From: an uncultured Acidimicrobiales bacterium
GTDB lineage: Bacteria; Actinomycetota; Acidimicrobiia; Acidimicrobiales; SZUA-35
Length of the DNA stretch: 64,000 nt
NCBI GenBank assembly: GCA_963723995.1
Contig: CAVRSZ010000001.1
Coordinates: forward strand, 118,114-182,113
Direction: 5' to 3'
How positions within the stretch are numbered: the stretch's first letter is position 1; each line of letters opens with the position of its first letter. Below, piece after piece: positions 10,918-29,166 of the stretch. A model generated the notes under the pieces. The model searched no databases and was not told the origin of the DNA. It saw only the letters and a program-made list of their open reading frames with translations. A program made the translations under genes and the position numbers.

Positions 10918-11049
10918 CGTGGCGCTCCAGGTTGCTGATGGACAGCATGTGGTAGCGGCTGAACAAGGCGGTGTCGACGGTGAAGAAGTTCCAGGCATCG
11001 GCGGCTTGCGAGTGTAGGAATCACCACCAGGTGTCGTCCTGGCCTTGTT

Positions 11050-12036: not shown

Positions 12037-12241
12037 CAGGATTGACGCCATCGCGCGATGAAGTCGAAACGGCCGACTGAGGCTGAGGAGACGACGACGA
12101 GTGAGGTAATCCGGGAAGCGATCCGACAGTTCCTGGAAGGGGCCTAAATCGCCGTCCAGCCCGCAGCTCCGGACCAGGGTCTGCCCGCAGGCCCCGGTCG
12201 GCGCAGCGGATCGAGTCGGTTGTCATCGCACGCCTGGTTGC

Positions 12242-13207
12242 CTACTGCTGGTTGAGATGGCCGATCAGCGCATCAACCTCGTCGGCGACGACGCTGGGTT
12301 CGATGACGCGAACCGGGGCGCGAAGCGCCACTCGGGCCAGCGCCATGACGAGTGACTCGAGCTCGTTCGCGCCAAGTCGGATCGTGCACGAGTCGGCTTC
12401 AGTGTCGACCGGCGTGTTCTCAACCCATGACAATGCCTCGGCGACCTGTTCGTAGGGGGCCTGCACGGCCACGAGCGTTTCGATGTCGCGAGGTATCGAG
12501 GCGACCGAGGCCGCAAGGTATGCAGCAGCGTTGCCGCCGGGGATGTCGCGTGGCGCGAATCGTCCACCGGCAAGTTGCACGTCGCTGAGTCGGTCGAGGC
12601 GGAACGTGCGCCAGCCGGTACGCCGAAGATCCCATGCGAGGAGGTACCAGAGGCGGCCAGCGGAGAGCAACTGGTGCGGTTCGACCAGACGACGGCTGTC
12701 CTCGCCGTCGCGGCGTTGATAGTCGAAGCGGACTTCTTCGTGGGCTCGACACGCCGAGGCGAGCACGCTGAGTGTCTCCGGGGCGACGACTCCGCCGTCG
12801 CCGTGCGCTCGACGTAGCGATACGACAGCGCCGTCGAGTGCGGACACACGACGCCGTAGGCGGTCGGGCAGTGCCTGTTCGACTTTGGCCAGTGCCTGCA
12901 CCGATGTGTCCTCGATGCCGGCGATCGCAGCGCCGGCGGCGGCGCGCAGTCCGACTACGACCGCCACCGCTTCGTCATCATCGAACACCAGTGGCGGCAG
13001 GTGCGCACCGGCCGCCAGTCGGTATCCGCCGTCGCTGCCCGGTGTGGCATTGACCGGGTAGCCCAGATCGCGCAGTCGATCGACGTCGCGGCGAACCGTT
13101 CGCTCGGTGACGTCCAAGCGCTCGGCCAGTTCGGCCCCAGACCACAGTCGGTGGGTCTGCAGCAGCGAGAGGAGTTGCAGCGCCCGCCCGGTCGGATCGT
13201 TTCGCAT
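12242..13207 (-). CDS. YafY-type HTH/WYL-domain transcriptional regulator
   Basis: GRALQLLSLLQTHRLWSGAELAERLDVTERTVRRDVDRLRDLGYPV...GGYRL, plus the central WYLLAWD (WYL) motif. Confidence 0.85.
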   Translation of the reverse strand: MRNDPTGRALQLLSLLQTHRLWSGAELAERLDVTERTVRRDVDRLRDLGYPVNATPGSDGGYRLAAGAHLPPLVFDDDEAVAVVVGLRAAAGAAIAGIEDTSVQALAKVEQALPDRLRRRVSALDGAVVSLRRAHGDGGVVAPETLSVLASACRAHEEVRFDYQRRDGEDSRRLVEPHQLLSAGRLWYLLAWDLRRTGWRTFRLDRLSDVQLAGGRFAPRDIPGGNAAAYLAASVASIPRDIETLVAVQAPYEQVAEALSWVENTPVDTEADSCTIRLGANELESLVMALARVALRAPVRVIEPSVVADEVDALIGHLNQQ

Positions 13208-13303
13208 TTCTCAAGCTTCCCACATATTGCGGACAGAATCTGTCCGCAATGAGTTCTACGGTGGGTTCCGTTCGGAGATACCCCAGAAGAAGGAGGACAT
13301 GCA

Positions 13304-14251
13304 GTGTCCCATCCAGCAGTGTTCAATCCAGCAGAGTTTCCCGAGCCCACGATGATTTCGGTCAATGGTGTGGAGCTCGAAGTGTTCGAAGCAGGCCAAG
13401 AGAACGCAGGACGGCCCGTCGTGCTCTGCCACGGCTGGCCGGAGCATGCCTTCGCGTGGCGCCATCAGGTGCCGGCCCTTGCCGAAGCGGGCTACCACGT
13501 CATCGTCCCGAACCAGCGAGGCTATGGCAACTCGTCTTGCCCGAGCGAAGTCACGGACTACGACATCGAGCACTTGTCGGGTGACCTCGTCGCGCTCCTC
13601 GACCACTACGGATACCAAAACGCCACCTTTGTCGGTGAAGACTGGGGCGCGATGATCGTCTGGGGGTTGACCCTCTTGCACCCAAACCGTGTGAACGGAG
13701 TGATCGCCCTGAGCGTGCCCTATCTCGACCGCGGCGACCAACCCTGGGTCGAGTTCATGGAAGAGATGCTCGGCAGCGACTACTACATGGTGCACTTCAA
13801 TCGAAAGCCGGGCGTCGCCGACGCCGTGCTCGACAAGAACACTTCCCAGTTCCTTCGTAACCTGTACCGGAAGAACCAGCCGCCGGCAGAGCCTCAGCCA
13901 GGCAACGCAATGATCAACCTCGCCGAAGCAGAGATCCCTGTCGGCGATCCCGTCATGAGCGACAGCGAACTGGCTGTCTTCGTCTCCGCCTTCGAAGCAT
14001 CAGGGTTCACGCCAAGCATCAACTGGTACCGGAACCTCGACCGCAATTGGCATCTGTTGTCGGACGTGGATCCACTCATCCAGCAGCCCGCACTCATGAT
14101 CTATGGCGACCGCGATCTTGTGGCCAGGAATGAACGGATTGCAGAGTTCGTGCCCAATGTGCAAGTGGTCAACTTGGACTGCGGCCACTGGATCTCGCAA
14201 GAACTGCCGGACGAAACAAACCAAGCGATCCTGAAGTGGCTCGAGCAGTGA
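13304..14251 (+). CDS. alpha/beta hydrolase, epoxide-hydrolase-like
   Basis: PVVLCHGWPEHAFAWRHQVPALAEAGYHVIVPNQRGYGNS...GEDWGA. Confidence 0.85.
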   Translation: MSHPAVFNPAEFPEPTMISVNGVELEVFEAGQENAGRPVVLCHGWPEHAFAWRHQVPALAEAGYHVIVPNQRGYGNSSCPSEVTDYDIEHLSGDLVALLDHYGYQNATFVGEDWGAMIVWGLTLLHPNRVNGVIALSVPYLDRGDQPWVEFMEEMLGSDYYMVHFNRKPGVADAVLDKNTSQFLRNLYRKNQPPAEPQPGNAMINLAEAEIPVGDPVMSDSELAVFVSAFEASGFTPSINWYRNLDRNWHLLSDVDPLIQQPALMIYGDRDLVARNERIAEFVPNVQVVNLDCGHWISQELPDETNQAILKWLEQ

Positions 14252-14655
14252 ACGCCGACGGCTCGCCCGGGGTTTCGGCCGATATCCGGTTTGGGGTTGC
14301 GACGCTCTCCATTCTCTTCCCGATCGGCTTGGCCTCGTTGGTCGTTGGGCTCGTGGCGCTGATCGGCGGCGGCCGGCTGGTCACGTCCCTGCCGGCTCGG
14401 CCGGATGAGAGTCCCCGCTGGACTTGCGGGGGCGTTCGGTTCTGCCGACCACTGTTGCAGGACGCGTCGCAGTCCTGTGCTCGGTGTTGGTCTTCATCCC
14501 GTTCACCAGCGGGGCGATGTTCGGCGCCCCGATCTTCTTGTTCCTCGGTGTACGCAAGGGTGATCGGGGCCTGTTGTTGGTGCTGCCCGTGCTCGTGTCG
14601 ATCGTCGTGATCGGGGTGATCGCCATTGTGGTTTGGGCGGTTCTTGTTGGGTAGA
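14252..14655 (+). pseudogene. 3' fragment of the 25187-26119 membrane-protein gene, frameshifted
   Basis: Begins directly after the hydrolase stop. It corresponds to ..NADGSPGVSADxRFGV.. through the C-terminus of the full copy. A missing G (..gctggac-ttgcggg..) splits it into two frames. Confidence 0.75.
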
Positions 14656-14699
14656 GGCGTACCGGGCACCCCATGGAGCCCGTCGGACCGGGGTGTCTG

Positions 14700-15080
14700 T
14701 CAGGCTCGGTACACGTTGACACTGTTGGCGTGATCGGCCAGTGCGCGTAGGTCCTTGAGGTCGCTGGTGAGCACAGCGCCACCGGGTTCAGCGAGTGCTA
14801 CGACGATGGCGTCAACGGCGGAACCTTGGCCGGCCAGCGCACGCAGAGCACCTGCTCGGCGGGCGAGGCGTTCGGGCAGTTCCTCGATGATGTCGCACGT
14901 CTTGAGGAACCGATGGATGTTGGCATCACTTCGTTGCCGTCCTGAGGTCGACTCGGCGAGTACGGCCGAGGGGACCGCAGGCGGCCACAAGCCGTCGCGT
15001 TTGAACACCGCTATCAGGGCAGCGGAATCTTGTCGTCGTCGGGCGAGACGGCTCACACCGCCAGAGTCGAGAACGAGCAA
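14700..15080 (-). CDS. vapC: PIN-domain toxin VapC
   Basis: MLVLDSGGVSRLA...AVLAES...AVDAIVVALAEPGGAVLTSDLKDLRAL. Lies 3 nt downstream of its antitoxin gene. Confidence 0.85.
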   Translation of the reverse strand: MLVLDSGGVSRLARRRQDSAALIAVFKRDGLWPPAVPSAVLAESTSGRQRSDANIHRFLKTCDIIEELPERLARRAGALRALAGQGSAVDAIVVALAEPGGAVLTSDLKDLRALADHANSVNVYRA

Positions 15081-15083
15081 CGC

Positions 15084-15350
15084 TCAGCCGATCCTGGCGG
15101 CGGGGGCGTTGGCCTGGATTCGTCGTGACAGCGCTTCGGCCTTGGCCAGTGCCTCGTCGGTAGGTTCACCAACATCGTCGATGAGTTCGGCCAGGTACCG
15201 GTCGGTCTCTTCAAGCAGAGCCTGATGTCGCAACTCAGCCCGCACGGCATCTTGGAGGAGTTCCGAGGGTGACAGCCCGCGTTCTTTGACTGCGTCGTAG
15301 AGTTCGTCGGGGAGGTACACCTGCATCCGTGGCATACGTCTACTATACAC
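15084..15350 (-). CDS. RHH/CopG-type antitoxin (VapB-like)
   Basis: MQVYLPDELYDAVKERGLSPSELLQDAVRAELR, a ribbon-helix-helix N-terminus. The start may be the internal Met. Confidence 0.75.
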   Translation of the reverse strand: MYSRRMPRMQVYLPDELYDAVKERGLSPSELLQDAVRAELRHQALLEETDRYLAELIDDVGEPTDEALAKAEALSRRIQANAPAARIG

Positions 15351-15638
15351 ACTCCGAGTGTCATCGAGGAGTTGTGGGGGGTGTGTCGGTCTGCTGACGG
15401 GCTGCTAACGGAAGCGCCAGGTAACCAGAATCGAGCGGCGACGTCGGCGCGGGCGATGGGCTTGGCGAGGTGGATGGGGGACTTGGCGGTGGGCGTTGTA
15501 GCGGCCGGTTCGAGGCTTGTCGGTGAGGGCTAGGGGCGGACGATGGTGACTAACCGTTTTCCCGCTGCGGATGCGGTCGCCGCAACATTCCGATGGATCG
15601 TCGGGTCGAGGTGGAGTCAGGCACAGGATCCGTGCCTG

Positions 15639-16031
15639 TCAGTAGACCTCGAAGCGGGCGTCCAGCGCCGACATGTCTTCGCGGTCTGAGGTGAGAATGA
15701 AGGTGCCCAGACCTTCCGCGACCACCGCAAGGTGGGCGTCGACTACGTCAGCGGTTCCGGATGCGGCGAGCCTGTGTCCAACGCCTACTGACTCGTCAAG
15801 GGGGTGAATGTCGAAATGGCGAAGTGCCCGGGCCAGATTCGCCTGTCGTGCCGGCTCACGCCAGACTTGGGCGAGCACGGGGTGGGTCGTGTGCAGGTCG
15901 TCGCCACGTTCGGTTGCCCGCTTGATGATGGCCCAGAGTCGAGAGTTCAGGTTCTCTCCGTCGACGATGAAAGGGCCCGCATCGATAATCAACGATCGAC
16001 TCCTTGTCGGTCGAGCACCGTGTCGGCCCAC
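15639..16031 (-). CDS. vapC: PIN-domain toxin (VapC-like)
   Basis: LIIDAGPFIV...VVDAHLAVVAEGLGTFILTSDREDMSAL. The real start is probably inside the track ORF, near the antitoxin stop. Confidence 0.75.
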   Translation of the reverse strand: MGRHGARPTRSRSLIIDAGPFIVDGENLNSRLWAIIKRATERGDDLHTTHPVLAQVWREPARQANLARALRHFDIHPLDESVGVGHRLAASGTADVVDAHLAVVAEGLGTFILTSDREDMSALDARFEVY

Positions 16032-16234
16032 TCCAGATGCTTCCGGTCGATGGGGCCTTCGTCGGCCTCCCAGGAAGCGATCATGTCGAGCATTGCCTGA
16101 CTGCGCCGGCGGCGCTTCACCTCGGCCAGGAGAGATCGCTTGATGGCCAGCTTCTTCGTGCCGTCCATCGCCACCAGCTCGGCGAGTGCCGCTTCCATCT
16201 CGTCATCGAAGTTGATCGTCGTCTTGCTGGCCAT
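15989..16234 (-). CDS. antitoxin partner of the 15639 PIN toxin
   Basis: 81 aa, immediately upstream of and overlapping the toxin. MASKTTINFDDEMEAALAELV.. is RHH-like. Confidence 0.6.
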   Translation of the reverse strand: MASKTTINFDDEMEAALAELVAMDGTKKLAIKRSLLAEVKRRRRSQAMLDMIASWEADEGPIDRKHLEWADTVLDRQGVDR

Positions 16235-16320
16235 ACAAGTATGGTACCGGACCTGTAGATCTATGGCATCAGGACGGTAGACATGGGCGCCTGGAGTGAG
16301 TCGGTATCGCGCCGTCGGGG

Positions 16321-17052
16321 ATGGCTGATGTAGGTTGGTGTGACGCCGGCACGATCGACTGGCACGAGAACCACAAGCTCCTCAAGGTCGCCTTCCCGGT
16401 CGACGTGCGGGCCTCCTTCGCCCGCCACGAGATCCAGTTCGGTCACATCGAGCGAGCGACCCATCGGAACACGAGCTGGGATGCGGCCCGATTCGAGACC
16501 TGTGCCCACACCTGGGTCGACGTCAGCGAGGACGGATTCGGCGTGGCGCTGCTCAACGACTGCAAGTATGGCCACGACATCGTGGGCAACGTGATCCGCC
16601 TCCCGCTCCTTCGGGCCCCGACCTGGCCCGATCCGGTTGCCGACCGGGGTCGCCACCGCTTCGCCTACGCCCTGTTCCCCCACGCCGGCCCGCCCACCAG
16701 CGGCCGGGTGATCCAGGAGGCGCACGCCTTCAACGCACCGCTGCGGGTGATCCCTCTGGCTGCAGGGCCAGGTGGTGTGCATCCGGCCCGGCACTCGCTG
16801 GTCGAGCCCGGCGATCCGGGTGTGGTGATCACCGCGGTCAAGGCGGCCGATGACGGCGAGGGCATGATCGTGCGGCTCCACGAGGCCTTCGGAGGGCGCC
16901 GCCGGGTGAGGTTGCGGATTCCCGGTGCCACGCAGGTCGATCGCGTCGATCTTCTGGAGCAGCCGACCGCCCACGACCCGCCGGCCGTGCTTGACGAGGC
17001 CGTCGAACTCGCTCCAAAGCCCTTCGAGCTCGTGACTCTTCGCCTCCGCTAA
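16321..17052 (+). pseudogene. C-terminal fragment of a GH38 alpha-mannosidase
   Basis: HENHKLLKVAFPVDVRASFARHEIQFGHIERATHRNTSWDAARFETCAHTWVDVSEDGFGVALLNDCKYG matches the recalled GH38 C-terminal domain. The ~700 N-terminal residues are absent. Confidence 0.65.
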
Positions 17053-17103
17053 GCCATCGGCGGCAAGGCCGTGATCTTGGCACGGGCCGGTCGATGCGTC
17101 CTG

Positions 17104-17769
17104 TCACGGGGCCGCAGTTGGGTGGCGAGAGATGGTTGCCCACGGTCGACCATCGCGAAGAATGGTGACGGAGCGGTCTGTGTCGATCAGGTCGCCTATT
17201 TCGCCCCATCGGTCGCTCAACTGGGACTCGTCGAACGCATCGACGCCTGGTGTGCCGATCTCGGCGAGGACCGCGGTCATGGTCGCGGCACGTGCTTCCC
17301 GCTCGGCTTCGGCGTCGTCAGGATCGACGCGGCGTTCATCGAGCAGCCAGTCGATGGCCCGGCACTCACCGGCGGCGTTGCTGTACTCGAACCATCGTTG
17401 GCGCAGGTCGGGGAACTCATACAGGGTGCTGCGGAAGCGGCCGAAGGCGCCGCGCCCTTCGAGCGCTCGCGCCAGTAGATCGCACGCCCTGGCGTCGGCG
17501 ACCGACTCGGCGAACTCGACCATGTCTCGGTAGGCGTGGCGCGATCCGATTGAATCGATCGGGACCAAGCCTCGTTCGTATGGGTCGTCTTCGTCCTCTG
17601 CGTCCATGATGTACGAGTTGGGGAAGCCGATCTCGACCTGACCGTTTGTCGGGTCGTACCACCAGCTGGTCTCAACGCTGTTGTCTCCCAGCGCTTCGGC
17701 GAGTCCGGCGAGATCGATGTCGGCGATCGACCGCGTCGAACGCTCGTCGTCTGAGGCTGCATGTCGCAT
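17104..17769 (-). CDS. UPF0158-family protein with C-terminal extension
   Basis: WWYDPTNGQVEI...LVPIDSIGSRHAYRDMVEFAESV...ALEGRGAFGRFRSTL...WFEY, the recalled UPF0158 pattern. An extra ~70 aa tail ends ..RSVTILRDGRPWATI. Confidence 0.6.
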   Translation of the reverse strand: MRHAASDDERSTRSIADIDLAGLAEALGDNSVETSWWYDPTNGQVEIGFPNSYIMDAEDEDDPYERGLVPIDSIGSRHAYRDMVEFAESVADARACDLLARALEGRGAFGRFRSTLYEFPDLRQRWFEYSNAAGECRAIDWLLDERRVDPDDAEAEREARAATMTAVLAEIGTPGVDAFDESQLSDRWGEIGDLIDTDRSVTILRDGRPWATISRHPTAAP

Positions 17770-17786
17770 GGCACCATTATGAACCA

Positions 17787-17920
17787 GCGTGGACGTGAGA
17801 CTCGACGGTGGTGACCCAGGGGTGTCGCGGCCGCCAGATGCGGCCCTAGGGTGCTGGTTACCGCAAGACGTCGCGGGAGCCCGAACGGCGGAGGTTGTTC
17901 AAGTCCCCTCCGACACACTC
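17787..17920. repeat. conserved intergenic element, copy 1 (boxes CGTGGnCG..CTCG / CCAGGGGTGTCGC / GGAGGTnnGTTCAAGTCCCCTCCGAC)
   Basis: Shares three ordered sequence boxes, with similar spacing, with 28988-29096. It lies just 5' (minus sense) of the UPF0158 gene start. Confidence 0.45.
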
Positions 17921-17939
17921 GTCAGTACACGCTGGGTTC

Positions 17940-18353
17940 TCAGACGGCCACGACATCGATGAGGTCGTCGAGGGCCCTGAGGTCGTGAGGATTGCGGGTG
18001 AAGAGCGGGAGATTCTCAGCCAGAGCAGTGGCAGCGATGAGAAGGTCCACTGCTCGGGTGCCACGTGGCTTGCGTCCAGTGGTCGCGACTGCGGAGAAGA
18101 CTCTGCCGTAGGCGCGGGCCGCGTCGGCACCGAACGGAAGCGGGTCGAAGACGGCCTCGGCCCGCTGGAGCCGGTCCTGGCGGCGGCTGCGTTCGGCTGG
18201 GTCGTCGGTGGCGTGTGGACCGGCGGCCAGTTCGGCCAGGGTGAGGGCGCTGATGGCAACCTCGAGGGGGAGTGAGCTGACGGGGATACGTTCGAGATCG
18301 ATGACGACCGACGTGTCCAGCAGTCCTCGTCCGGGTCGGCTGGTGCTAGGCAC
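17940..18353 (-). CDS. vapC: PIN-domain toxin VapC
   Basis: GLLDTSVVIDLE...LTLAELAAG...AVDLLIAATALAENLPLFTRNPHDL. Confidence 0.85.
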   Translation of the reverse strand: MPSTSRPGRGLLDTSVVIDLERIPVSSLPLEVAISALTLAELAAGPHATDDPAERSRRQDRLQRAEAVFDPLPFGADAARAYGRVFSAVATTGRKPRGTRAVDLLIAATALAENLPLFTRNPHDLRALDDLIDVVAV

Positions 18354-18600
18354 GGGGGGCGAAGTGCTGGTCGGCGATCTGGTCGAGGTCGTGGCTGAGT
18401 TGATCGAAGTTGACGGGGGCGGCGGTTCGGAAGAGCTCGATCGCGGCCTCGGTTCGGACGAAGCGGTGACGGCGCAGCGGGGTCAGCTCGCCGATGGGTA
18501 CACCGTTGCGAGTGACAATGAAGGTCTCGCCCTCGGTGAGGGCGCGCATGATCCGCCCGCTGTCGTTTCGAAGCTCTCGCTGGCTGATCTCGCTACTCAT
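18346..18600 (-). CDS. Phd/YefM-type antitoxin
   Basis: An internal ATG at 18600 gives MSSEISQRELRNDSGRIMRALTEGETFIVTRNGVPIGELTP. The gene overlaps vapC by 8 nt. Confidence 0.75.
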   Translation of the reverse strand: MSSEISQRELRNDSGRIMRALTEGETFIVTRNGVPIGELTPLRRHRFVRTEAAIELFRTAAPVNFDQLSHDLDQIADQHFAPRA

Positions 18601-18720
18601 GACACCGAGTGTAGCACCATGTGCTACGGCGGCGACGAGGGTTTCTACGGCGCGCCTTCGAAGCGGTGCATGCGGTACTCCTCCCCGTCGCAGTGCATGC
18701 ATTTGTGCTAACCTGAGCGT

Positions 18721-18915
18721 ATGCGGAGTACAAGTGTGAGGATTGACGTTGGGACCCATCGGGAGCTCAAGCGGCTCGCTGCTTCATTGGGCGTGAGCGT
18801 AGGTGACACTGTTGCTCTCGCAGTCCGCCGTCTTCGCCAGGATCGCATCGGGGCTGACCTTGCTCACGACCTGACTGCCGAAGAGGTTGATTGGCTCGAT
18901 GCTGACCTCGGGTGA
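18721..18915 (+). CDS. RHH antitoxin (MazE-like)
   Basis: SVRIDVGTHRELKRLAASLGVSVGDTVALAVRRL. Overlaps the downstream mazF start. Confidence 0.65.
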   Translation: MRSTSVRIDVGTHRELKRLAASLGVSVGDTVALAVRRLRQDRIGADLAHDLTAEEVDWLDADLG

Positions 18916-19243
18916 TGTCGTCGACTTGGATTTTGGTGTTCCAGCGGGCAGAGAAGCGGGGTTTCGTCATCCTGCGATCGTGGTGACGGCGCAGCGAGTT
19001 TTGGACGCAGAACCGAGTGTTGTGCAGGTTGTGCCGCTCACTTCGACGCTTCGGGGATTCGCCTCCGAGGTCGAGATCGATGTCGACGATATGAATGGTC
19101 TCGAGCAGGCATCGGCTGCTCAGTGCCAACACATTCGGGCGGTGGCGGCCGGGCGGATCGAACGGACGAGGGGCAACGTTGGGTCGGCCGTGTTGGTGGA
19201 GGTTCGGGAGTTGCTCGGCCTAATTCTCGATGTGGCGGGGTGA
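18899..19243 (+). CDS. mazF: MazF/PemK family toxin
   Basis: GDVVDLDFGVPAGREAGFRHPAIVVTAQ...VVQVVPLTSTLRGFASEVEI...RIERTRGNVG..LLGLILDV. Confidence 0.8.
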   Translation: MLTSGDVVDLDFGVPAGREAGFRHPAIVVTAQRVLDAEPSVVQVVPLTSTLRGFASEVEIDVDDMNGLEQASAAQCQHIRAVAAGRIERTRGNVGSAVLVEVRELLGLILDVAG

Positions 19244-19913
19244 GGCCGGCGGTGTCATGCTGCAAATGGTTTGCGAACGGTATCTGGCGGCCGAGGGCGT
19301 TAGGGGGCGGCTGGACGATCGCTCGAGTGCATTGGTTGCTCGATAATTCGACATTGCGGAACGCATCCCATGCCTCGATCTCGACCTTGGCCGCCTCGGG
19401 AAGCAGGTCGGCGCACGCCTCCTCGGCGGCGTGCCAAGCCGCATCCAGCTCCATCCACTCCCCATCGGTCAGCTCGACGTCACGGCCACCGTCGAACATC
19501 TCGTCGAGTTCGGCCTGCCCGATGTCGACCTCGACATCGGGCTCGGTCCACAGGTCGCCGAGCTGGTCGGCCATGCACACCTCGAAGGCGCCGACGTGGT
19601 CGGCAGGCTTGCCGTCCGAGCTCTCGCCGATGTCCGCGTCCCCGGTTGCGTCCACCGGGCGGGGAGTGGCGTAGGCCGGGTTGTCCTGGGCGCCTGCGAT
19701 GGCGCGGACGCCGGTCACCGCTGCCGGTAGCGTCACCATGCCGACCAGTGCGCCGATCAGCGCCGGGCGTCGACGCCGGGTCCGGATGTCGGGGGTATCG
19801 ATGGGTTCCTCGTCCTCATCACTGGTTGTGGTTGGGGGACGGTCCGATGGTGCCTGACCGTTGCTGAGACCGACCTGAGAACCTGAGAACGCTCTCAGCT
19901 GGTTTGACGGCAA
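19038..19913 (-). CDS. hypothetical acidic protein with twin-arginine-like signal; 3' end uncertain
   Basis: TRRRRPALIGALVGMVTLPAAVTGVRAIAGAQD, followed by a D/E-rich region. The last ~200 nt of the ORF run antisense through mazF and look non-genic. Confidence 0.4.
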   Translation of the reverse strand: MPSNQLRAFSGSQVGLSNGQAPSDRPPTTTSDEDEEPIDTPDIRTRRRRPALIGALVGMVTLPAAVTGVRAIAGAQDNPAYATPRPVDATGDADIGESSDGKPADHVGAFEVCMADQLGDLWTEPDVEVDIGQAELDEMFDGGRDVELTDGEWMELDAAWHAAEEACADLLPEAAKVEIEAWDAFRNVELSSNQCTRAIVQPPPNALGRQIPFANHLQHDTAGLTPPHRELGRATPEPPPTRPTQRCPSSVRSARPPPPECVGTEQPMPARDHSYRRHRSRPRRRIPEASK

Positions 19914-19931
19914 GCAGGCACACTCGAAGTC

Positions 19932-19991
19932 ATGCGCATCCTTGTGGTCGACGACGAGGAACGCCTAGCCCGGTCGATCGCGCGGGGCCTA
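19932..19991 (+). pseudogene. 20-codon stub of an OmpR-type response-regulator receiver domain
   Basis: ATG at 19932 gives MRILVVDDEERLARSIARGL, a canonical receiver N-terminus. It then switches abruptly to dehalogenase-like sequence in another frame. Confidence 0.5.
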
Positions 19992-20440
19992 TCACCTTCT
20001 TCGGCCAGGACTGGGGTGGTCTCATCGGCCTGCGGCTGGTCACCGCCCAACCGGACCGGTTCGCTCAGGTTGCGGTAGGCAACACCGGGCTGCCAGCTGG
20101 ATACGGACGGCCGTCGGAAGCTTTCCTGCGGTGGCAGCAGTTCTCCCAGACAAGCCCGGTGTTCCCGGTCGGCGACATCATCAACGGGGCCACCACCAGC
20201 GACTTGGCCCCCGAGGTGATCGCGGCCTACGACGCCCCCTTCGCTGATGATCGAGGTGACCCGGAGCCGCCGTCTCGAACCCGAGACAAGCCAGGTTTGC
20301 GCCGCTCGGCCGGCCGACCCCGGGGTCGGGGGGAGCTCCAACGAGTGGCGGGCCGTTGTGCCCACCGCACTGCGGGGCTGGCTGGACAACTCCACATCGA
20401 GACCGTGGCTCGCCGGCACCGAGCCACCTTCGCACGACCT
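19984..20440 (+). pseudogene. internal fragment of a haloalkane-dehalogenase-type alpha/beta hydrolase, frameshifted
   Basis: PITFFGQDWGGLIGLRLVTAQPDRFAQVAVGNTGLPAG...AFLRWQQFSQTSPVFPVGDIINGATTSDLAPEVIAAYDAPF. The N-terminus is missing and the continuation (..NEWRAV..LRGW..) is in another frame. Confidence 0.6.
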
Positions 20441-20445
20441 CGACT

Positions 20446-20775
20446 TCAGCCCGCAAGGCCGAAGAACACGAGGATCGCTCGGCCGAGTCTGACAAGTTCA
20501 TCGTCACCAAGCCTGCCGATGCGCTCGCCAAGCTTGGAGCGGGGCACGGTCGTGATCCTGTCGACCATGAGGCTGCAGGGCTCTTGTAGTCCGTTCACCT
20601 CGTCGGGCTTGATCCGGAGCCGGAACAGCGGTGCATCGGTGGGGTCGGTCGTAAAGGCGCAGATCGTCACCGAGTCTGTTGCGTCGAAACGATCGTCCTG
20701 GACGATTGCAACGGGCCCTGGCTTCCCGGCGTACCCGGTGCCGGCCGCCGCGGTCCAGATCTCGCCGCGCCTCAA
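20446..20775 (-). CDS. mazF: MazF/PemK family toxin
   Basis: MRRGEIWTAAAGTGYAGKPGPVAIVQDDRFDATDSVTICAFTT...MVDRITTVPRSKLGERIGRL. Confidence 0.85.
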   Translation of the reverse strand: MRRGEIWTAAAGTGYAGKPGPVAIVQDDRFDATDSVTICAFTTDPTDAPLFRLRIKPDEVNGLQEPCSLMVDRITTVPRSKLGERIGRLGDDELVRLGRAILVFFGLAG

Positions 20776-20993
20776 TCGTCGTCCAGGCTGACTGCGTCGA
20801 TGAACGCCTGGTCGTCAGCTGCATGCTTGCTTGCAGCAACCGCTGCAGACTGGCGGTGGGCCTCGCTCTCGAACTCCGGTGACCGCACGTCCGGTACCCA
20901 AATCTGCACCGGACGAAGGCCCTGTGCACGAAGGCGACGGCGGTGCTCGCGCACTCGCTTCTTGACCCCGGCGTCATCCTGCGGAGCAGCCAT
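20772..20993 (-). CDS. antitoxin (DUF3018/MazE-like)
   Basis: KKRVREHRRRLRAQGLRPVQIWVPDVRSPEF..EAHRQS. Has a 4-nt overlap with the toxin. Confidence 0.65.
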   Translation of the reverse strand: MAAPQDDAGVKKRVREHRRRLRAQGLRPVQIWVPDVRSPEFESEAHRQSAAVAASKHAADDQAFIDAVSLDDD

Positions 20994-21206
20994 ACTCCCA
21001 TGTTACATGTAACGAATGGCCAGTCAACTCCCTCGCCCCAATCGGCCGTGACTAGGTGATCGGCCGCTCGCCCCTTCGACACCCGAGTTGAACCCTGTGA
21101 GATGTCGATCATCCAAGGCGTCCACCGGCGCATGGGTCTGTGTGGATTGCGAGCGGCCAGGACGTGTTCACCGATCGGCGGTGGGACCGGGGGTGCCCCT
21201 GCAGGC

Positions 21207-22428
21207 TCAGATGCCGGCGTCGGGGCGGGTCTGGCCGAGCTCGAACAGTTGCTGATGGTAGCTGACGTTGGCCGGGTCCTCGGGATCCTTGGTCTTGCCT
21301 GGCAGGAGCGAGGCGAACAGGCCCATCTCAGTGGTCAAGATGTAGGCGGTGACCACGGCGACTGCCGCCGGCGCAGCGGTGATCGGTCCAACGCTGACGG
21401 TGAGAACGGCGAGGAGGGCTATCGAGAACGGGGCCTTGATCGACGCCCCCGGTACGGCGACAAGAAGGCACGACAGGGTCAACGCGATCGGCAGGTCCGG
21501 GATGATGACGTGGGTGGCGACACCGGCAGCGCCGCCGATGACGAGCGTCGGCATGACCGGCCCCCCCGATGAAGCCGGTGGCCAGGCTCGTCGCCATCGC
21601 CACGATCTTTGCCAACACAATCCCGACGAGCACCAACGCCCCCAGCTCGTCGGCCTGGTTGATCATGTCCGGCAGCTGCGCCTTGCCCGACCCCAGTGTC
21701 AGCGGGAAGAACACGGCGATGAGCCCGACGGCGAGACCCCCGACCCCGGCACGCACGACGGTGTTCGGGATCCGCGTAAACCAGGTTCGCAAGACGAAAA
21801 CCGTCGCGCCCAGCAGCCGAGACAGGAACGCGCCCACCACACCAAGCAGCACGGCGACACCGAAGTGCCAGTACTCGATCTCGTAAGACGGCACGGCGAA
21901 GACATCGACGAAGGTGGCGCCGACAAACGTGAACACCACAAAGAAACCAAAGACCGACGCCACCAGACTGGGCGCCACCGTTCGGTAGTAGCGCTCATGG
22001 CGCTCCGGTGGGTTCAGCTCAGTCACCAACAGCGTGGCCAGGACCGGCGACGTGAGCAGGCCGCCGATCGCCCCGTTGATGCCGACCAGCGTGTTGAGCT
22101 TGCGCGTCTCGCCCTCGGCGCCGACCCGGTCCGAGAACCACTCGCCGACCGCGCCACCGGAGCGGACCCCGGCATCGAAGGGCCCCAGGCTTGCGCCGCC
22201 GACGAGAGAGACCCACGAGACGAGGATCATCGGTATAGCCGAGCGTTGATCGACGTGGCGGACGGCGATGCTCTCGAGCGCGCCGTTCGGCTCGATGGGC
22301 ACCTGCAGCCAGCGCCGCAGCAGCCCAACGAGAAGACCTGCTCCGACGGTGAGGGCAATCCATCGTCGAAGAATCCGGGAGGTTCTCGGTGGACGGCCAC
22401 CTAGCGGTCGATATCGGGCGCCGCGCAT
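21207..22428 (-). pseudogene. ClC-type chloride/fluoride channel gene with +1 frameshift in a G7 run
   Basis: The 21328-22428 frame carries ClC TM sequence up to ..ATGFIGG. Removing one G of the coding-strand G7 (plus-strand C7 at 21561-21567) joins it to ..PVMPTLVIGGAAGVATHV... in frame 21207-21620, restoring a GxFxP-like motif. Confidence 0.75.
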
Positions 22429-22499
22429 GGGTGGCCACGTGCGGTCGTGCTACTGCCACTGCCGGCGACGGGCGCCCTGCGGTGTGGTAGAACCGCACG

Positions 22500-23300
22500 A
22501 TGCCGACGTTTGCGGGTTCTGAGGGAGTGGTTCACTACGAGCGCTGGATCCCTGACGAGCCGCCAGTGCGAATCGTCATCATCGTGCACGGCTACGCCGA
22601 ATACGCCGCCCGCTACAGACACCTGGCCGAGGCGCTCACCGCTCACGGCTCGATCGTGTACGGCGAGGACCACCCCGGTCACGGACGCAGTGACGGGGAA
22701 CGAGCACTCATTGTCGACTTCGAACACGTGGTCGACGACCTCCGCGCACTGGTCGACATCGCCGTCGGCGAGCACCCCCGACTGCCGGTGGTGATGATCG
22801 GACACTCGATGGGTGGCCTACTCGCCGCCCGGTTTGCGCAGCGCTATACCGAACAGCTGGCGGGAATCGTGTTCTTGGGCGCAGTCATCGGTGATTGGCA
22901 TTGGGCCCGGGAGGTGCTGGAACGGCCGGAGCTGCCCCCGACGGCGTCCGATTTCTCCGGCATGTCCCGAGACGAGGCGGCCGTCGACGCCTACACAACC
23001 GATCCGCTCATCTACCACGGTCCCTACAAACGGCCTCTGCTCGAGGCGGAGGTTGTGGCACTCGATCGTTTTCAGGCTCACGTCGGCGCGTTGACGCTGC
23101 CGGTACTGTTCTGCCATGGGACCGAGGACCCCTTCGTCGACTATCGCACCTCACTGGCAGCAGTCGAGTTGATGCCCAGTGAGGACAAGACGATCAGGCT
23201 CTACGACGGAGCCCGCCACGAGCTCGTGAACGAGACCAACCGTGACGAAGTGATCGCCGACATCGTGGACTTCGTCGAGCCTCGTTCCTTCCTGAGATAG
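22500..23300 (+). CDS. alpha/beta hydrolase (lysophospholipase / monoacylglycerol-lipase-like)
   Basis: VIIVHGYAEYAARYRHLAEAL...VVMIGHSMGGLLAARFA...CHGTEDPFVD...ARHEL. Confidence 0.85.
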   Translation: MPTFAGSEGVVHYERWIPDEPPVRIVIIVHGYAEYAARYRHLAEALTAHGSIVYGEDHPGHGRSDGERALIVDFEHVVDDLRALVDIAVGEHPRLPVVMIGHSMGGLLAARFAQRYTEQLAGIVFLGAVIGDWHWAREVLERPELPPTASDFSGMSRDEAAVDAYTTDPLIYHGPYKRPLLEAEVVALDRFQAHVGALTLPVLFCHGTEDPFVDYRTSLAAVELMPSEDKTIRLYDGARHELVNETNRDEVIADIVDFVEPRSFLR

Positions 23301-23301
23301 C

Positions 23302-23345
23302 TTCCATGGAATATAACGAAACGGGTTAGAATAGATTCCATGGAA
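23302..23345. promoter_or_regulatory. two copies of the palindrome TTCCATGGAA (MarR box candidates)
   Basis: Copies at 23302-23311 and 23336-23345, centres 34 bp apart. The second covers the MarR ATG at 23340. Confidence 0.5.
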
Positions 23346-23819
23346 TTCAAAAGGAACGCGTGCGGGACTCCGCCGGTCGACCTGGCCGTTCTGTTCAGCG
23401 ACCTGGTCCGGATGGAAACCGACCTGTGGCATCTCATCGACCAGCGGCTGCGCCGGGAACACGAGGTCCCGCTGTCGTGGTTCGAGCCGATGCAGGTCAT
23501 GGACCGCGTCCGCGACTGTCGAGTTGCCGACATCGCCGAGGCGTTGTCGATCACGGTGGGCGGCGCGAGCAAGCTGGTCGATCGCATCGAGCACGCTGGC
23601 TGGTGCGGCCGTTCGCCGAACCCGAACGACGCTCGATCGTCTGTGGTCACCCTGACCCAAGCCGGGCGTCGCGTGCTCGACGCTGCGCAGGGCTCGTTCT
23701 GCGACGAACTGGCTGCCCGGCTCGCAGGGGCGGTCTGCGCCGAGCGGCTCGCCTCGTTCGCGACAACCGTGCAAGACCTGCGACACCACATCGCAAACCG
23801 GCAAGAGAGTGCAACATGA
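23340..23819 (+). CDS. MarR family transcriptional regulator
   Basis: Winged-helix segment RVADIAEALSITVGGASKLVDRIEHAGWCGRSPNPNDARSSVVTLTQAGRRVL. Confidence 0.85.
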   Translation: MEFKRNACGTPPVDLAVLFSDLVRMETDLWHLIDQRLRREHEVPLSWFEPMQVMDRVRDCRVADIAEALSITVGGASKLVDRIEHAGWCGRSPNPNDARSSVVTLTQAGRRVLDAAQGSFCDELAARLAGAVCAERLASFATTVQDLRHHIANRQESAT

Positions 23820-24805
23820 GCAAGACTTCAGCTTCGATGCGGGCCGCCGTGCTCGACGCACCCGGCCCGCCCGAAGCATTGCAGATCCGTGAGGTGCCCA
23901 TGCCGGTGCCTGGGCCCGGTCAGGTGCTGATCAAGGTCGAGGCATTCGGGCTCAACCGGTCGGAGCTCCACACTCGGCTCGGCCTTGCCGACGGGGTCAC
24001 GTTCCCTCGGGTGCTCGGCATCGAAGCGACAGGAGTCGTGGCCGAGTGTCCAGGCGGCGAGCTCGCCCCCGGCACACAGGTCGCGGCGTTGATGGGCGGC
24101 ATGGGGCGGACGTTCGACGGCGGGTATGCCGAGTTCACTTGTGTGCCGGTCCAACAAACGGTTCCGTTCACGAGCGATCTCGATTGGGCCACGCTCGGTG
24201 CTGTACCGGAGATGCTGCAGACCTCCTATGGGTCGCTCACCGTCGGCCTCGACGCCCAACCGGGCCAGTCGATCCTCATCCGCGGCGGTACCTCCTCGGT
24301 CGGTATGGCGACCGCCGTGCTCGCCCGGCGGCTCGGTATGACCGTTCTGTCCACCACACGCAACCCCGACCGTGCCGACGTGCTGCGGGAGATCGGCGTG
24401 CAGCACCCGTTGGTGGACGACGCTAACGTCGCCGCCCAGGTCCGTGACCGCATCCCCGACGGCGTCGACACCGCTCTCGAGCTCGTTGGCACCCCTACGC
24501 TGCCCGACACACTCCGAGCGACACGGGTGCACGGAGTCGTCTGCTTCACCGGCATGCTGTCGAACCAATGGACCGTGCCGGACTTCTACCCAATCGAGTA
24601 CCTGCCCCGGGGCGTTCGCCTCACCGCCTACGGAGGCGACGCCAGCGACCTGCCGTCCGGCGTGCTGCAGGAGTTCCTCGACGCGGTCGCTGCCGGCGAA
24701 GCCCAGGTGCCGATTCACAGGACATACCGCCTCGACGAGATCGCCGAGGCCCACGCAGACATGGAAGCCGACCGCGCCACCGGGAAACTCGTCGTACAGC
24801 CGTGA
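23816..24805 (+). CDS. zinc-type alcohol dehydrogenase / quinone oxidoreductase (MDR family)
   Basis: The ATG overlaps the MarR stop (ATGA). MRAAVLDAPGPPEALQIREVPMPVPGPGQVLIKVEAFGLNRSE...ILIRGGTSSVGMA...ATGKLVV. Confidence 0.85.
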   Translation: MSKTSASMRAAVLDAPGPPEALQIREVPMPVPGPGQVLIKVEAFGLNRSELHTRLGLADGVTFPRVLGIEATGVVAECPGGELAPGTQVAALMGGMGRTFDGGYAEFTCVPVQQTVPFTSDLDWATLGAVPEMLQTSYGSLTVGLDAQPGQSILIRGGTSSVGMATAVLARRLGMTVLSTTRNPDRADVLREIGVQHPLVDDANVAAQVRDRIPDGVDTALELVGTPTLPDTLRATRVHGVVCFTGMLSNQWTVPDFYPIEYLPRGVRLTAYGGDASDLPSGVLQEFLDAVAAGEAQVPIHRTYRLDEIAEAHADMEADRATGKLVVQP

Positions 24806-25186
24806 TCAATCCCCACCGAATGAGCCTTGCATGAGCGCCGACGGCGCTCGTGGCGCCCGACTTCGAAGGGCAGCCGTTCTCGATCGGCCGAGTTTCGCAT
24901 TCCGCCTAAGTTGAGAGTGTGCTCCCTCCGGGTTAAAGGTCTGGTGCTGTTGGCCGGCGGCACCGGGCACTCGATCGATGAACTCCTGGCCGAGATGGCC
25001 GCCACTTGGTAGCCGGGCACCACAGGTCGGGCGCAGGTTGCTGTGGGCGAGTTCGAGGGCGGCCCAAGTACGGGATTTCGAAGAAGATCGAGACGTTGGA
25101 CCCTGGTGGCGGCGACACGGATATGGCAGAAAGAAGGTGGAGACAGCCGACTTCCCGGTCGGTGACCCGGCGAAGTCGGTGACCTA

Positions 25187-26119
25187 GTGAAAAAGGTGGT
25201 TCCGGTGACGCGAAGAACCAAGGTGATTGGGTTCGGAACCGGGCTGGTGGTGGTGGGGCTGGTCCTCGTCTACAACTTCGGTCTCACATCGTTGGGGCAT
25301 TCTCCCGTTTTGCGCGAGTACAACTTGACCGATCCGTTGACGATCGAGGTGTCGTCCCGCGCCGTGGTCACTGACGACGTCGAGCTGCTGCGCTGGAACA
25401 CCATGCCCGAGTTCGTCTCGCTGCCCGATGATGTGCGGGTGGAGGGTGTTGCGGCGGGGTCCGAAACGCTGTTCATGGGCATCGCTCCTGCCGATGCGGT
25501 TGCCGGGTACCTCGACGGCGTCGCCCACGATGAGATCACCGACTGGGAATCCCGCGCCGACGACATCACCGATGTGGTGTACACCAGGAACGAGGGCGCC
25601 ACCGATCCCGCCGCTCCAGGGACCGAGGATTTCTGGGTGGCGTCGGTGAGCGGCAGTGGTGAACAGGCCCTCGAGTGGACGATCGAGGGCGGGGAGTGGG
25701 CCCTGGTGATCATGAACGCCGACGGCTCGCCCGGGGTTTCGGCCGATGTCCGGTTTGGGGTTCCGACGCTCTCCATTCTCTTCCCTATCGGCTTGGCCTC
25801 GTTGGTCGTGGGGCTCGTGGCGCTGGTCGGCGGCGGCCGGCTGGTCACGTCCCTGCCGGCTCGGCCGGATGAGACCCCCCGCTGGACGTTGCGGGGGCGT
25901 TCGGTTCTGCCGACCACTGTTGCAGGAGGTGTCGCAGTCCTGTGCGCAGTGTTGGTCTTCATCCCGTTCACCAGCGGGGCGATGTTCGGCGCCCCGATCT
26001 TCTTGTTCCTCGCCGTACGCAAGGGTGATCGGGGCCTGTTGTTGGTGCTGCCCGTGCTCGTGTCGATCCTCCCGATCGGGCTCATCGCCATGCTTGTTTG
26101 GGCGATTCTCGGTGGGTAG
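25187..26119 (+). CDS. membrane-anchored hypothetical protein (N-terminal TM, ~170-aa extracytoplasmic domain, C-terminal multi-TM block)
   Basis: The hydrophobicity pattern is clear. Its 3' third is the part duplicated at 14252-14655. Confidence 0.65.
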   Translation: MKKVVPVTRRTKVIGFGTGLVVVGLVLVYNFGLTSLGHSPVLREYNLTDPLTIEVSSRAVVTDDVELLRWNTMPEFVSLPDDVRVEGVAAGSETLFMGIAPADAVAGYLDGVAHDEITDWESRADDITDVVYTRNEGATDPAAPGTEDFWVASVSGSGEQALEWTIEGGEWALVIMNADGSPGVSADVRFGVPTLSILFPIGLASLVVGLVALVGGGRLVTSLPARPDETPRWTLRGRSVLPTTVAGGVAVLCAVLVFIPFTSGAMFGAPIFLFLAVRKGDRGLLLVLPVLVSILPIGLIAMLVWAILGG

Positions 26120-26550
26120 AGGCGTACCGGGCACCCCATGGAGCCCGTCGGACCGGGGTGTCTGTCAGGCCCGGTACACGTTGACATTGTTGGCGTGATC
26201 GGCCAGTGCGCGTAGGTCCTTGAGGTCGCCGGTGAGCACAGCGCCACCGGGTTCAGCGAGTGCTACGACGGTAGGTTCACCAACATCGTCGATGAGTTCG
26301 GCCAGGTACCGGTCGGTCTCTTCAAGCAGAGCCTGATGTCGCAACTCAGCCCGCACGGCATCTTGGAGGAGTTCCGAGGGTGACAGCCCGCGTTCTTTGA
26401 CTGCGTCGTAGAGTTCGTCGGGGAGGTACACCTGCATCCGTGGCATACGTCTACTATACACACTCCGAGTGTCATCGAGGAGTTGTGGGGGGTGTGTCGG
26501 TCTGCTGACGGGCTGCTAACGGAAGCGCCAGGTAACCAGAATCGAGCGGC
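25713..26550. repeat. segmental duplication, copy B (838 bp, with 354-bp internal deletion relative to A)
   Basis: Direct-repeat partner of 14249-15439. The deletion junction is ..ctacgacg|gtaggttc.. at 26270/26271. Confidence 0.9.
26165..26461 (-). pseudogene. in-frame chimera: antitoxin N-terminus (64 aa) fused to VapC C-terminus (34 aa)
   Basis: MYSRRMPRMQVYLPDELYD...DDVGEPT|VVALAEPGGAVLTGDLKDLRALADHANNVNVYRA. The two halves match 15084-15350 and 14700-15080 respectively. Confidence 0.8.
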
Positions 26551-27121
26551 AGCCACCGGGGGAGCCGTCGCCGGAAACGCCATGAATCACAACGATCTGC
26601 CGCTCCTTGCCGAGTCGGAACCAGCGCCGGCGGGCTGTCCGGCCCGTTCCGCCGGAGGATTGCGCCGCGTCGTACTTCCGGACCGGGGTGGAGTACTGCC
26701 GCAAAGTGATCGAGTAGCCGAAGCCTCGGTAGGTGGGCGGAAAACCCCGCCCAGATCGCTCGGCGAGTCCGGGCGGGTGGCGATTCTTGTGAGACTCTGG
26801 GTAGTGGGCAGACAAGCCCATCCAACATGTGCCGAACCGGAGCCGGAGAGATGATGCCCCTGCAACGTAATGGACCTGAAGGCGGGCCGATCCTGCGGCT
26901 GTTCGAGGCCACGGCGAAGGCGGGCTGCGGCGCGCAGCTGATGGCGAAGTGCGCTACGACCTCGGAGTGGGTCCGGCACGTGGATCTGAGCGACGGTTGG
27001 CATGTGGAGGCGACGTGAACCAGGTATTCCTCCGCCTAGGCCGTGAAGCTGATGGGCGGATCGAACCGTGTACCCAGCCACGGGACCGGGCCGCACCGAG
27101 CCAACAACCCCTGGAGTCGTC

Positions 27122-27979: not shown

Positions 27980-28342
27980 GCCGCCATCGCAACGGCGCTC
28001 GACGCACCGCCCAAGCAGCGCTTGGCCAATCGGAACCAACCGGCCACGAGGCGAACACATCGCGATGGGGCCGTGGTGGGCACTCCGCCCCGAATCGGGG
28101 TGGTAGAGAGTGTGGAACACAGCCGACCAGCATCGGTTGCGTTTCCCCTGATCAGCGGCCACGGCCGATACTTGGCCCCCCACAGTCGCGGGCGTCGTCA
28201 CTGGCGCTGGTGAACGCGTTCGCTGCCCTGCGCCTCGAGGGCGACCAGGGCGCTGTAGCTGTGGCCCTCAGGGATCACCTTCCCGGGTTTTGGTTGGTTC
28301 CTGCTCGCTGGGTTGGTGGTCGTCCCGAAGTCGACCAGCTGA

Positions 28343-28970: not shown

Positions 28971-28987
28971 GCTTGGATGATATCGGA

Positions 28988-29096: not shown

Positions 29097-29166
29097 TTCG
29101 GTAGAGGCCGTGGTCAAACGCTCTGCGCCCGGCGAGGTTTCGAATCGGGGGTGGTGATTCTTGAGC

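Follow-up and report, generated by a model that had tools for sequence, protein, structure and literature searches.

A probable partial segmental duplication in a toxin–antitoxin-rich island of an uncultured Acidimicrobiales bacterium

How does a chromosome come to carry the same segment twice, with one copy preserving what the other has lost? The question is raised by a 64,000-nucleotide stretch of DNA from an uncultured Acidimicrobiales bacterium (assembly GCA_963723995.1, contig CAVRSZ010000001.1, positions 118,114 to 182,113; hereafter, the window), in which the 3' part of a membrane-protein gene and a VapBC-type toxin–antitoxin (TA) module occur together at two places about 11.46 kb apart. 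We report here that this arrangement is probably the product of a genuine partial segmental duplication within a TA-rich, rearrangement-prone chromosomal island of an Ilumatobacteraceae-like member of the Acidimicrobiia, in which the distal locus is parental, and a tandem duplication was followed by a deletion and then by gene conversion. Loci from other genomes used for comparison are denoted by the letter L and a number.

The only large repeat in the window, as judged by self-BLASTN and a repeat search, is a direct, collinear pair. Copy A (14249–15439, plus strand) is 1191 bp long and comprises a 3' fragment of the membrane-protein gene, a 45-bp spacer, vapC, vapB, and 104 nt of promoter-proximal DNA upstream of vapB. 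Copy B (25713–26550, plus strand) is 838 bp long, has the content of copy A minus 354 bp, and is embedded in its native flanks. Self-BLASTN splits the pair into a left block (14249–14805 versus 25713–26270; 557 and 558 bp, respectively), with 95.0% identity and one 1-bp gap, and a right block (15145–15439 versus 26256–26550; 295 bp), with 98.6% identity; the E-values of the two blocks are 0 and 3e-146. In total, 27 substitutions and a 1-bp indel separate the copies, in addition to the 354-bp deletion. The DNA flanking each copy is distinct, and copy A has two novel junctions, J1 (14248/14249) and J3 (15439/15440). These coordinates and the direct duplication, at a distance of 11.5 kb, had been given in a preliminary description of this DNA, and self-BLASTN, a MAFFT alignment and a read-out of the junctions bear them out. 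The same description called the copies near-identical, which holds for the spacer and the TA part (3 differences in 431 bp) but not for the membrane-gene part (24 substitutions and one indel in 407 bp).

What has happened at copy A can be read from its left edge. J1 lies in the 3' end of an α/β-hydrolase gene (Abhydrolase_1; 13304–14251, plus strand), whose stop codon, TGA at 14249–14251, comes from the repeat: it is the out-of-frame TGA in A-TGA-AC of membrane-gene codons 176–177. The resulting C-terminus, ...KWLEQ, is unique to the window protein; none of the 39 closest homologues stops there, and nearly all of them run on for 1–4 or more residues. Since the stop is repeat-derived and the homologues run longer, J1 is a breakpoint that clipped the hydrolase tail. 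Hence, the membrane-gene fragment is not fused behind the hydrolase stop, as had been supposed; the junction is situated inside the hydrolase 3' end, and the stop is donated by the repeat. The fragment itself (14249–14654, plus strand; 406 nt, codons 176–310) carries a 1-bp deletion after position 14423. A 124-aa open reading frame (ORF) at 14236–14610 starts from a GTG in the hydrolase 3' end, encodes membrane-protein sequence for about 62 aa before it leaves the frame; it is a pseudogene product that gene callers could label as a hypothetical protein.

The other half of copy A is intact. It holds vapC_A (14700–15080, minus strand), which encodes a 126-aa PIN-fold toxin, and vapB_A (15084–15335, minus strand), which encodes an 83-aa antitoxin starting with MPRMQVY, with the ORF open to 15350 from a GTG. 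The two genes are co-oriented, vapB_A being upstream of vapC_A with a gap of 3 nt. Thus, the ORF reading agrees with the earlier claim that copy A has the only intact VapBC-type pair and merely a frameshifted 3' fragment of the membrane-protein gene.

Copy B presents the complementary picture, again as initially described: according to the alignment, it contains the only intact membrane-protein gene (25187–26119, plus strand; 310 aa with about four predicted transmembrane helices), and 354 bp of its TA module are gone. The segment missing from copy B corresponds to 118 codons at 14806–15159 of copy A, and the MAFFT alignment and the junction read-out place the junction in copy B at 26270/26271. 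At its end-points the deletion has 13 nt of imperfect homology (AGTGCtaCGaCG / AGTGCctCGtCG), and CG stands precisely at the junction. The reading frame is maintained across this junction of slight homology, and the result is a VapB–VapC fusion ORF of 98 aa (26165–26461, minus strand) that joins, in frame, VapB residues 1–64 and VapC residues 93–126. The fusion ORF retains the promoter and the putative N-terminal DNA-binding half of the antitoxin and lacks the last 24 antitoxin residues, as well as D5, E43, and D90 of the toxin. Because these three acidic residues are absent, its product should be catalytically dead rather than an active PIN nuclease. Two of the three substitutions in the vapC remnant of copy B are non-synonymous, one of them at a conserved serine (TSD to TGD), which fits relaxed constraint on this remnant. 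The net state would then be one working membrane-protein gene, at locus B, and one working vapBC module, at locus A.

Which of the two loci is parental? Locus B contains, in this order, a spacer (25074–25186, plus strand), the membrane-protein gene, the convergent vapC–vapB pair, a conserved element of approximately 205 nt upstream of vapB, and an HTH_67 gene. We searched for the element with an nhmmer model that comprises copy B and four unrelated metagenome loci with homologous vapBC (L029, L033, L035, and L041). The element is complete at locus B (26447–26650, minus strand; model positions 4–209), whereas copy A retains only model positions 100–209 (15336–15443). As the element runs past the repeat edge in B and not in A, the breakpoint J3 falls within it. 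In unrelated genomes, this non-coding element has the same distal edge each time it lies upstream of vapB, and the match between the window and the HTH_67 upstream regions of L025 and L026 begins at 26652–26662, precisely at that edge. Locus B appears to be parental, and copy A a partial copy broken at both ends, because the full membrane-protein gene, the upstream spacer, and the complete element shared with other genomes are all kept at B.

This bears on the notion of reciprocal decay put forward in the preliminary description. It is true that each copy keeps what the other lost, but the evidence shows no more than that copy A lacks, on either side, native flanks which copy B still has. Symmetric decay of two near-identical copies is therefore too simple a framing; copy A may have been truncated already at its formation, and two once-complete copies need not have existed.

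Whether the two copies share a single origin can be decided from the joint between their parts. Between the stop codons of the membrane-protein gene and vapC lies a 45-bp spacer that A and B share without a single difference; it is unlike the DNA downstream of the gene in 12 of 12 orthologues. This vapBC module is not found beside the membrane-protein gene in any of the other loci compared (L001–L019, from about 17 genomes, all of them metagenome-assembled genomes, MAGs), and none of 81 vapBC loci has the membrane-protein gene next to it. Taken together, the identical spacer and its absence elsewhere imply that the membrane-gene/vapC junction arose once, and that A and B descend from it. Further, over the shared 406 nt the copies are 94.1% identical, compared to at most 90.4% identity of either to any orthologue, that is, they are mutual closest relatives.

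The divergence between the copies is strikingly uneven along their length. The membrane-gene part (407 bp) has 24 substitutions and one indel; there are no differences in the 45-bp spacer, three in 106 bp at the vapC 3' end (about 2–3%), and none in the 280 bp of vapB and its promoter. The contrast between the membrane-gene part and the spacer with the TA part (3 differences in 431 bp) is significant (Fisher p = 1.4e-5). Even within the membrane-gene part the first 340 nt have diverged by 3.8% and the last 66 nt by 17% (83% identity). When the differences in this part were polarised against 12 orthologues, 16 proved to be derived in A and 9 in B; nine of the 16 changes in A are unique or recur in no more than a single orthologue of the 12, which is consistent with pseudogene decay. 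At three linked sites (14548, 14607, and 14608) copy A groups with L003, L005, L007, L008, and L011, and copy B with the remaining orthologues; in the last 66 nt of the gene A is nearer L003, and B is nearer L001 and L002. Given the range from 0 to 17% and the shared haplotypes, a single duplication followed by point mutation is insufficient, and gene conversion or recombination must have acted. Judging from the alignments, conversion must have homogenised or more recently copied the TA part, and in at least one of the copies the 3' end of the gene must have been replaced by another allele.

The same contrast would also suit two old membrane-gene paralogues residing at both sites, with a mobile vapBC cassette inserted independently, or copied later, downstream of each. 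Some MAGs do have the membrane-protein gene twice on a single contig (L009/L016, 30 kb from each other) or once together with a fragment (L019), and the unit made up of the upstream element, vapB and vapC is cassette-like, having sharp edges and occurring in many unrelated contexts. The junction that arose once, as seen from the 45-bp spacer, is difficult to reconcile with this scenario; moreover, the cassette of copy A is truncated inside the upstream element, while an independent insertion is expected to be complete, and neither the other membrane-gene loci nor the 81 vapBC loci show the two together. We regard independent cassette acquisition by old paralogues as very unlikely.

How, then, did a partial copy come to be placed behind the hydrolase? 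With M for the membrane-protein gene, I for the intervening segment (15440–25073; about 9.6 kb of unique coding sequence between the copies), and up for the upstream element, the observed structure is hydrolase' / 3'M-vapCB / I - spacer - M - vapCB' - up - HTH_67. For the hydrolase, the nearest relative available is L022, a 1.4-kb JGI contig with 94.6% nucleotide identity over 1 kb. Its hydrolase keeps the tail, ending in ...KWLEQQSAASARMR and a stop codon; about 130 bp past the hydrolase there follows a match to the spacer (25074–25143, 90% identity) and then the membrane-protein gene (94% identity to 25342–25560). Hydrolase, spacer, and membrane-protein gene are thus contiguous in L022, without the intervening 10.8 kb of the window. 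This order is likely the ancestral state, in which case the window has gained 14249–25073, that is, copy A and segment I.

The most economical duplication history leading to the present structure would proceed as follows. At the outset, segment I would have lain between the hydrolase and the spacer. A unit of about 11.46 kb, containing I, the spacer, the membrane-protein gene, and vapCB, would then have been tandemly duplicated by an illegitimate join, which would have made J3; before the deletion in copy B this unit amounts to 11,465 bp, which is the observed spacing of the copies. Subsequently, a deletion of about 10 kb would have removed everything from the hydrolase tail, through the first I and the first spacer, to the middle of the first membrane-protein gene, which would have lost its 5' half; this would have left J1 at codon 176. 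The later changes can be read from the sequence: copy B lost 354 bp in frame, yielding VapB(1–64)::VapC(93–126) behind an unchanged promoter and operator, and copy A gained its frameshift and unique substitutions. Gene conversion or recombination reshaped parts of the repeats after the duplication, in some instances with alleles such as those present in other genomes. The map does not single out this course of events: direct illegitimate insertion of a 1.19-kb copy at the boundary of the hydrolase and I, template switching, and insertion of foreign A and I all yield the same one.

The last of these merits separate consideration. Copy A together with segment I (14249–25073) may have come from a related strain with the order membrane gene–vapBC–I and been inserted, through illegitimate or homology-facilitated recombination, between the hydrolase and a resident spacer–membrane gene–vapBC locus, the vapBC modules being homogenised later by gene conversion within the genome. 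In accordance with such an origin, the fragment in copy A shares its linked haplotype with L003, L005, L007, L008, and L011, and its last 66 nt are nearer L003 than copy B; the neighbours of the membrane-protein gene are not conserved among some 17 other genomes, suggesting frequent transfer; the island has been rebuilt differently in every relative; and the hydrolase–spacer arrangement of L022 is free of the insertion. On the other hand, the 94.1% identity of A and B over 406 nt exceeds the 90.4% that is the limit for orthologues. Moreover, the TA part is 99.3–100% identical between the copies, compared to about 82% nucleotide identity for the best external match, so that an additional conversion step is needed in any case. 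J3 would have had to be present already in the donor, and the GC content is uniform across the island. On balance, we consider a foreign origin of A and I unlikely.

A trivial explanation, that the duplication is an artefact of the assembly, with strain variants of one locus placed in series or with a mis-join in the MAG, has to be addressed as well. The closest relatives are all MAGs, and the proteins of the window are on record on a single 2.04-Mb contig only. Several features make such an artefact the least plausible of the readings, and very improbable. Between the copies there are 27 substitutions, a 1-bp indel, and a 354-bp deletion; the DNA on either side of each copy is unique, and 9.6 kb of unique coding sequence lies between them. 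J1 gives a coherent ORF with a donated stop codon, and a chimera of strains would not make half a gene fused to a hydrolase. A contig of 2 Mb would also imply a long-read or high-quality assembly.

Several observations weigh against the proposed duplication history. Firstly, no genome with an intermediate structure was found that would show how many events took place and in which sequence, be it tandem duplication with a later deletion or direct insertion of a 1.2-kb copy at the edge of I. Secondly, the structure is read from the assembled contig alone, and L022 is one short-read metagenome contig of 1.4 kb, whose own membrane-protein gene has a deletion of about 190 bp. Thirdly, a single date of duplication leaves the 0–17% range of divergence unexplained, and extra conversion events have to be assumed; the zero differences in the vapB part could partly reflect a polishing artefact caused by cross-mapping between the copies.

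The assignment of the TA module deserves comment, as the toxin belongs to a divergent family. The Pfam PIN match of vapC_A is below threshold (E = 4.8e-4; 21.2 bits versus the gathering cut-off of 23.6), and there is no NCBIfam or PADLOC match. The detectable homologues number 2655, and annotations among them include PF01850, VapC, and "PilT"; the acidic residues D5, E43, and D110 are invariant in the family, and D90 and D107 are conserved in at least 90% of its members. An alignment-based AlphaFold (AF2) model has a pLDDT of 66, and its top 26 fold matches in the PDB are all PIN, VapC or FitB proteins (probability up to 0.99, TM-scores of about 0.55–0.62), including Rickettsia felis VapBC2, FitB, and Mycobacterium tuberculosis VapC21 and VapC-5. 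Searches of PDB sequences with VapC and VapB were uninformative, with no solved VapC below E = 0.18. Based on residue conservation and the modelled fold, we accept the toxin as VapBC-type with a PIN fold. The ribbon-helix-helix matches of vapB_A are weak (RHH_5, E = 1.6e-3; VapB26, E = 0.04). The nearest external vapC has 90% protein identity and about 82% nucleotide identity.

Upstream of vapB, a perfect palindrome ACACTCGGAGTGT (15347–15363 in copy A; 26458–26474, identical, in copy B) adjoins a TATAGT hexamer resembling a −10 box, located 6 nt before the vapB ATG. We interpret these as a putative operator and the −10 box of a leaderless or short-leader transcript; a scan for the strict sigma-70 consensus found no promoter. 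Since the promoters and operators of both copies are identical, VapB_A should repress both operons.

The element of about 205 nt that abuts this region is found in several contexts. Other occurrences are at 967–1171 and 5331–5491 of L029, 113–318 of L033, 486–692 of L035, and 989–1192 of L041, as well as at 9055–9208 of L003 and 7991–8108 of L016; it occurs away from any vapB, too. Rfam yielded no family at the gathering score in the window or in L029, L033, L035, and L041, RNAalifold applied to eight copies of the element found no covariation support, and no tRNA or tmRNA gene was detected in either the window or eight vapBC loci. A motif resembling a T-arm, GGGGGACTTGAAC, was rejected, as it does not fold as one. 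The element could mark the edge of a mobile TA cassette. A bolder proposal, which we offer only as speculation and hold to be quite doubtful, is that the upstream element, vapB, and vapC form a self-contained mobile cassette of about 0.95 kb, the element being a recombination site or non-coding RNA of an undescribed kind by which TA modules are moved or regulated, and, separately, that the fusion of copy B has been kept as a toxin-free repressor or decoy acting at the identical operator of copy A.

The membrane protein, for its part, consists of an N-terminal transmembrane helix, a domain of about 160 aa, and three C-terminal transmembrane helices. It has no Pfam or NCBIfam family and no PADLOC match, yet 2032 representative clusters are detectable. 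Orthologues with 66–86% amino acid identity were found in about 17 other MAGs from Ilumatobacteraceae and other Acidimicrobiia. No flanking gene is common to any two of the loci L001–L019, and in this respect the gene behaves like one that is frequently transferred or recombining. A plasmid collection contains no DNA match to the repeat, and only distant (33–38%) matches of the membrane protein to DUF4389 proteins. The AlphaFold model predicted from its single sequence (pLDDT 44) was of no use.

Both copies are situated in a variable island of 19.4 kb (12028–31398) between an Abhydrolase_3 gene and an IclR gene. The GC content of the genome is 65%, and it is even across the island. L027 and L028 are colinear with the window at 10062–12027 (SDR, Abhydrolase_3) and 31399–36679 (IclR, SBP56, Fer2, CoA-binding, ECH, Na/H exchanger), with about 90% nucleotide identity in the colinear region and a common 258-aa SDR in the 90%-identity cluster of the window protein. 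In place of the 19.4 kb they carry 4 kb (1940–5963 of L027) with SBF, an amidase, and one further ORF. L025 and L026 hold the same modules in other orders, e.g., with HTH_67 directly upstream of the SDR gene.

Domain scans of segment I recovered the contents given in the preliminary description, namely, ClC (in fact a fragment), MarR, ADH, and further TA loci. The genes are a PIN/RHH-like pair, a GH38 fragment, UPF0158, a PIN/Phd pair, MazEF, the ClC fragment, Hydrolase_4, MarR, and ADH. The PIN/RHH-like pair (15639–16234) is weakly assigned, with a PIN match at E = 0.044 and an antitoxin ORF without a family match. In the PIN/Phd pair (17940–18759), PIN is solid (E = 2e-11) and Phd is sub-threshold (E = 1.9e-4; 21.5 bits versus a cut-off of 29.8); MazEF (20446–20993) was assigned by domain scan. 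Another pair, PIN/VapB-like (28343–28970), lies beyond copy B and has a weak antitoxin match (E = 0.049). Altogether, the island counts five TA-like pairs beyond those of the repeat, of which two are weakly supported. The C-terminal fragment of a GH38 α-mannosidase (16321–17052, about 240 aa), the shortened ClC channel ORF (21328–22428), and a partial Zn-ADH (29694–30515) indicate repeated truncating rearrangements in the island.

The hydrolase belongs to a divergent pair with a WYL regulator (12242–14251), which is kept as a unit in L020, L021, and L024 with differing neighbours; in L021 the pair adjoins an IS110 transposase, a Fic gene, and another PIN/VapB pair. In L022, a 44-bp relic of the Abhydrolase_3 3' end (1050–1093, matching 11981–12024 of the window) is located between the hydrolase stop and the membrane-gene spacer, which suggests that the WYL–hydrolase pair, too, arrived by insertion, at the Abhydrolase_3 3' end and accompanied by a short duplication. 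In PADLOC, the WYL regulator was the sole match, the TA proteins being unmatched. Apart from copies A and B, the only self-match in the window is a 37-bp direct repeat with 92% identity (55694–55730 and 63012–63048).

Known types of mobile element were considered for the island and rejected. A composite transposon or a unit flanked by insertion sequences is not indicated, as the repeat encodes a membrane-protein fragment and vapBC, and the window has no inverted repeats of 40 nt or longer. An integrative element of the att type would be at odds with the absence of tRNA and tmRNA genes from the window and of an integrase domain among the ORFs scanned, and with a repeat of 1.2 kb; the fragment upstream of the intact gene is also the opposite of the expected arrangement. 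An integron-like array of attC cassettes was dismissed because there is no repeated boundary motif in the 12–31.5 kb region and no integrase among the ORFs scanned there. Likewise, the 15-kb contig of L004 was not retained as a circular element running into Abhydrolase_3–WYL–hydrolase, as the rest of the contig (L026) has Abhydrolase_3 and no WYL–hydrolase pair.

What would the repeats do in their present state? The blocks (557 bp at 95% and 280 bp at 100% identity) are plausibly adequate for homologous recombination of the RecA type, deleting 11.1–11.5 kb. Mechanistically, the excision or amplification of the 11-kb segment that the preliminary description envisaged is plausible; no product of it turned up in the related sequences compared, all of which come from other species. 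Recombination within the right block would excise 11.1 kb, keeping vapBC_A and destroying the sole intact membrane-protein gene. A crossover in the left block would remove the sole intact vapBC as well as the membrane-protein gene, and as the antitoxin would be lost with it, toxin addiction should counter-select this class of events.

Each feature of the locus has a counterpart among described systems. As in tandem and segmental duplications with remnant formation (reviewed in PMC11721125), direct repeats lie one unit apart, a novel join has little homology, most of one unit has later been lost, and the repeats are still substrates for recombination; unlike in tandem amplification, about 10% of one unit survives here, there is no evident selection for amplification, and the copies have been reshaped by conversion. 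With Type II VapBC modules of Actinobacteria, known as multi-copy cassettes with horizontal mobility, the module shares the antitoxin-first order, the 3-nt gap, the PIN fold with its acidic residues, the palindromic putative operator, the many unrelated contexts, and the clustering with other TA pairs. It differs from them in the toxin score below Pfam PIN gathering, the lack of a solved VapC below the E-value given above, and the weak ribbon-helix-helix matches, and the family carries the non-coding upstream element of about 205 nt, unmatched to anything described.

The remnant at locus B resembles degenerate TA loci and orphan antitoxins, as discussed with regard to "anti-addiction" and cross-interactions (PMC7354431), in that it has a promoter and an antitoxin N-terminus without a functional toxin and stands beside an intact paralogue with an identical operator; it differs in being an in-frame antitoxin–toxin fusion from which the end of the antitoxin is missing. 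Finally, similar to the TA-stabilised island SGI1 (PMC5006074), an intact TA module is located at the edge of a repeat-flanked segment, and one class of crossovers removes the antitoxin gene; in contrast to SGI1, neither an integrase nor an att site is present, nothing points to excision, and the repeats are a by-product of duplication. Thus, the case is an instance of known processes, namely, duplication with remnant formation, mobility and decay of TA cassettes, and TA-rich flexible islands.

For annotation, the locus carries a warning: the stop codon of the hydrolase is donated, the ORF at 14236–14610 is a pseudogene, and that at 26165–26461 is a TA fusion remnant. The import beyond this genome is small, and the locus is of value as a dissectable example of how a TA-rich island is rebuilt in uncultured Acidimicrobiia, where duplication, illegitimate joining, a small in-frame deletion, and conversion leave one functional copy per gene distributed over two loci. 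The vapB-upstream element and the membrane-protein gene without constant neighbours may be of greater interest than the duplication.

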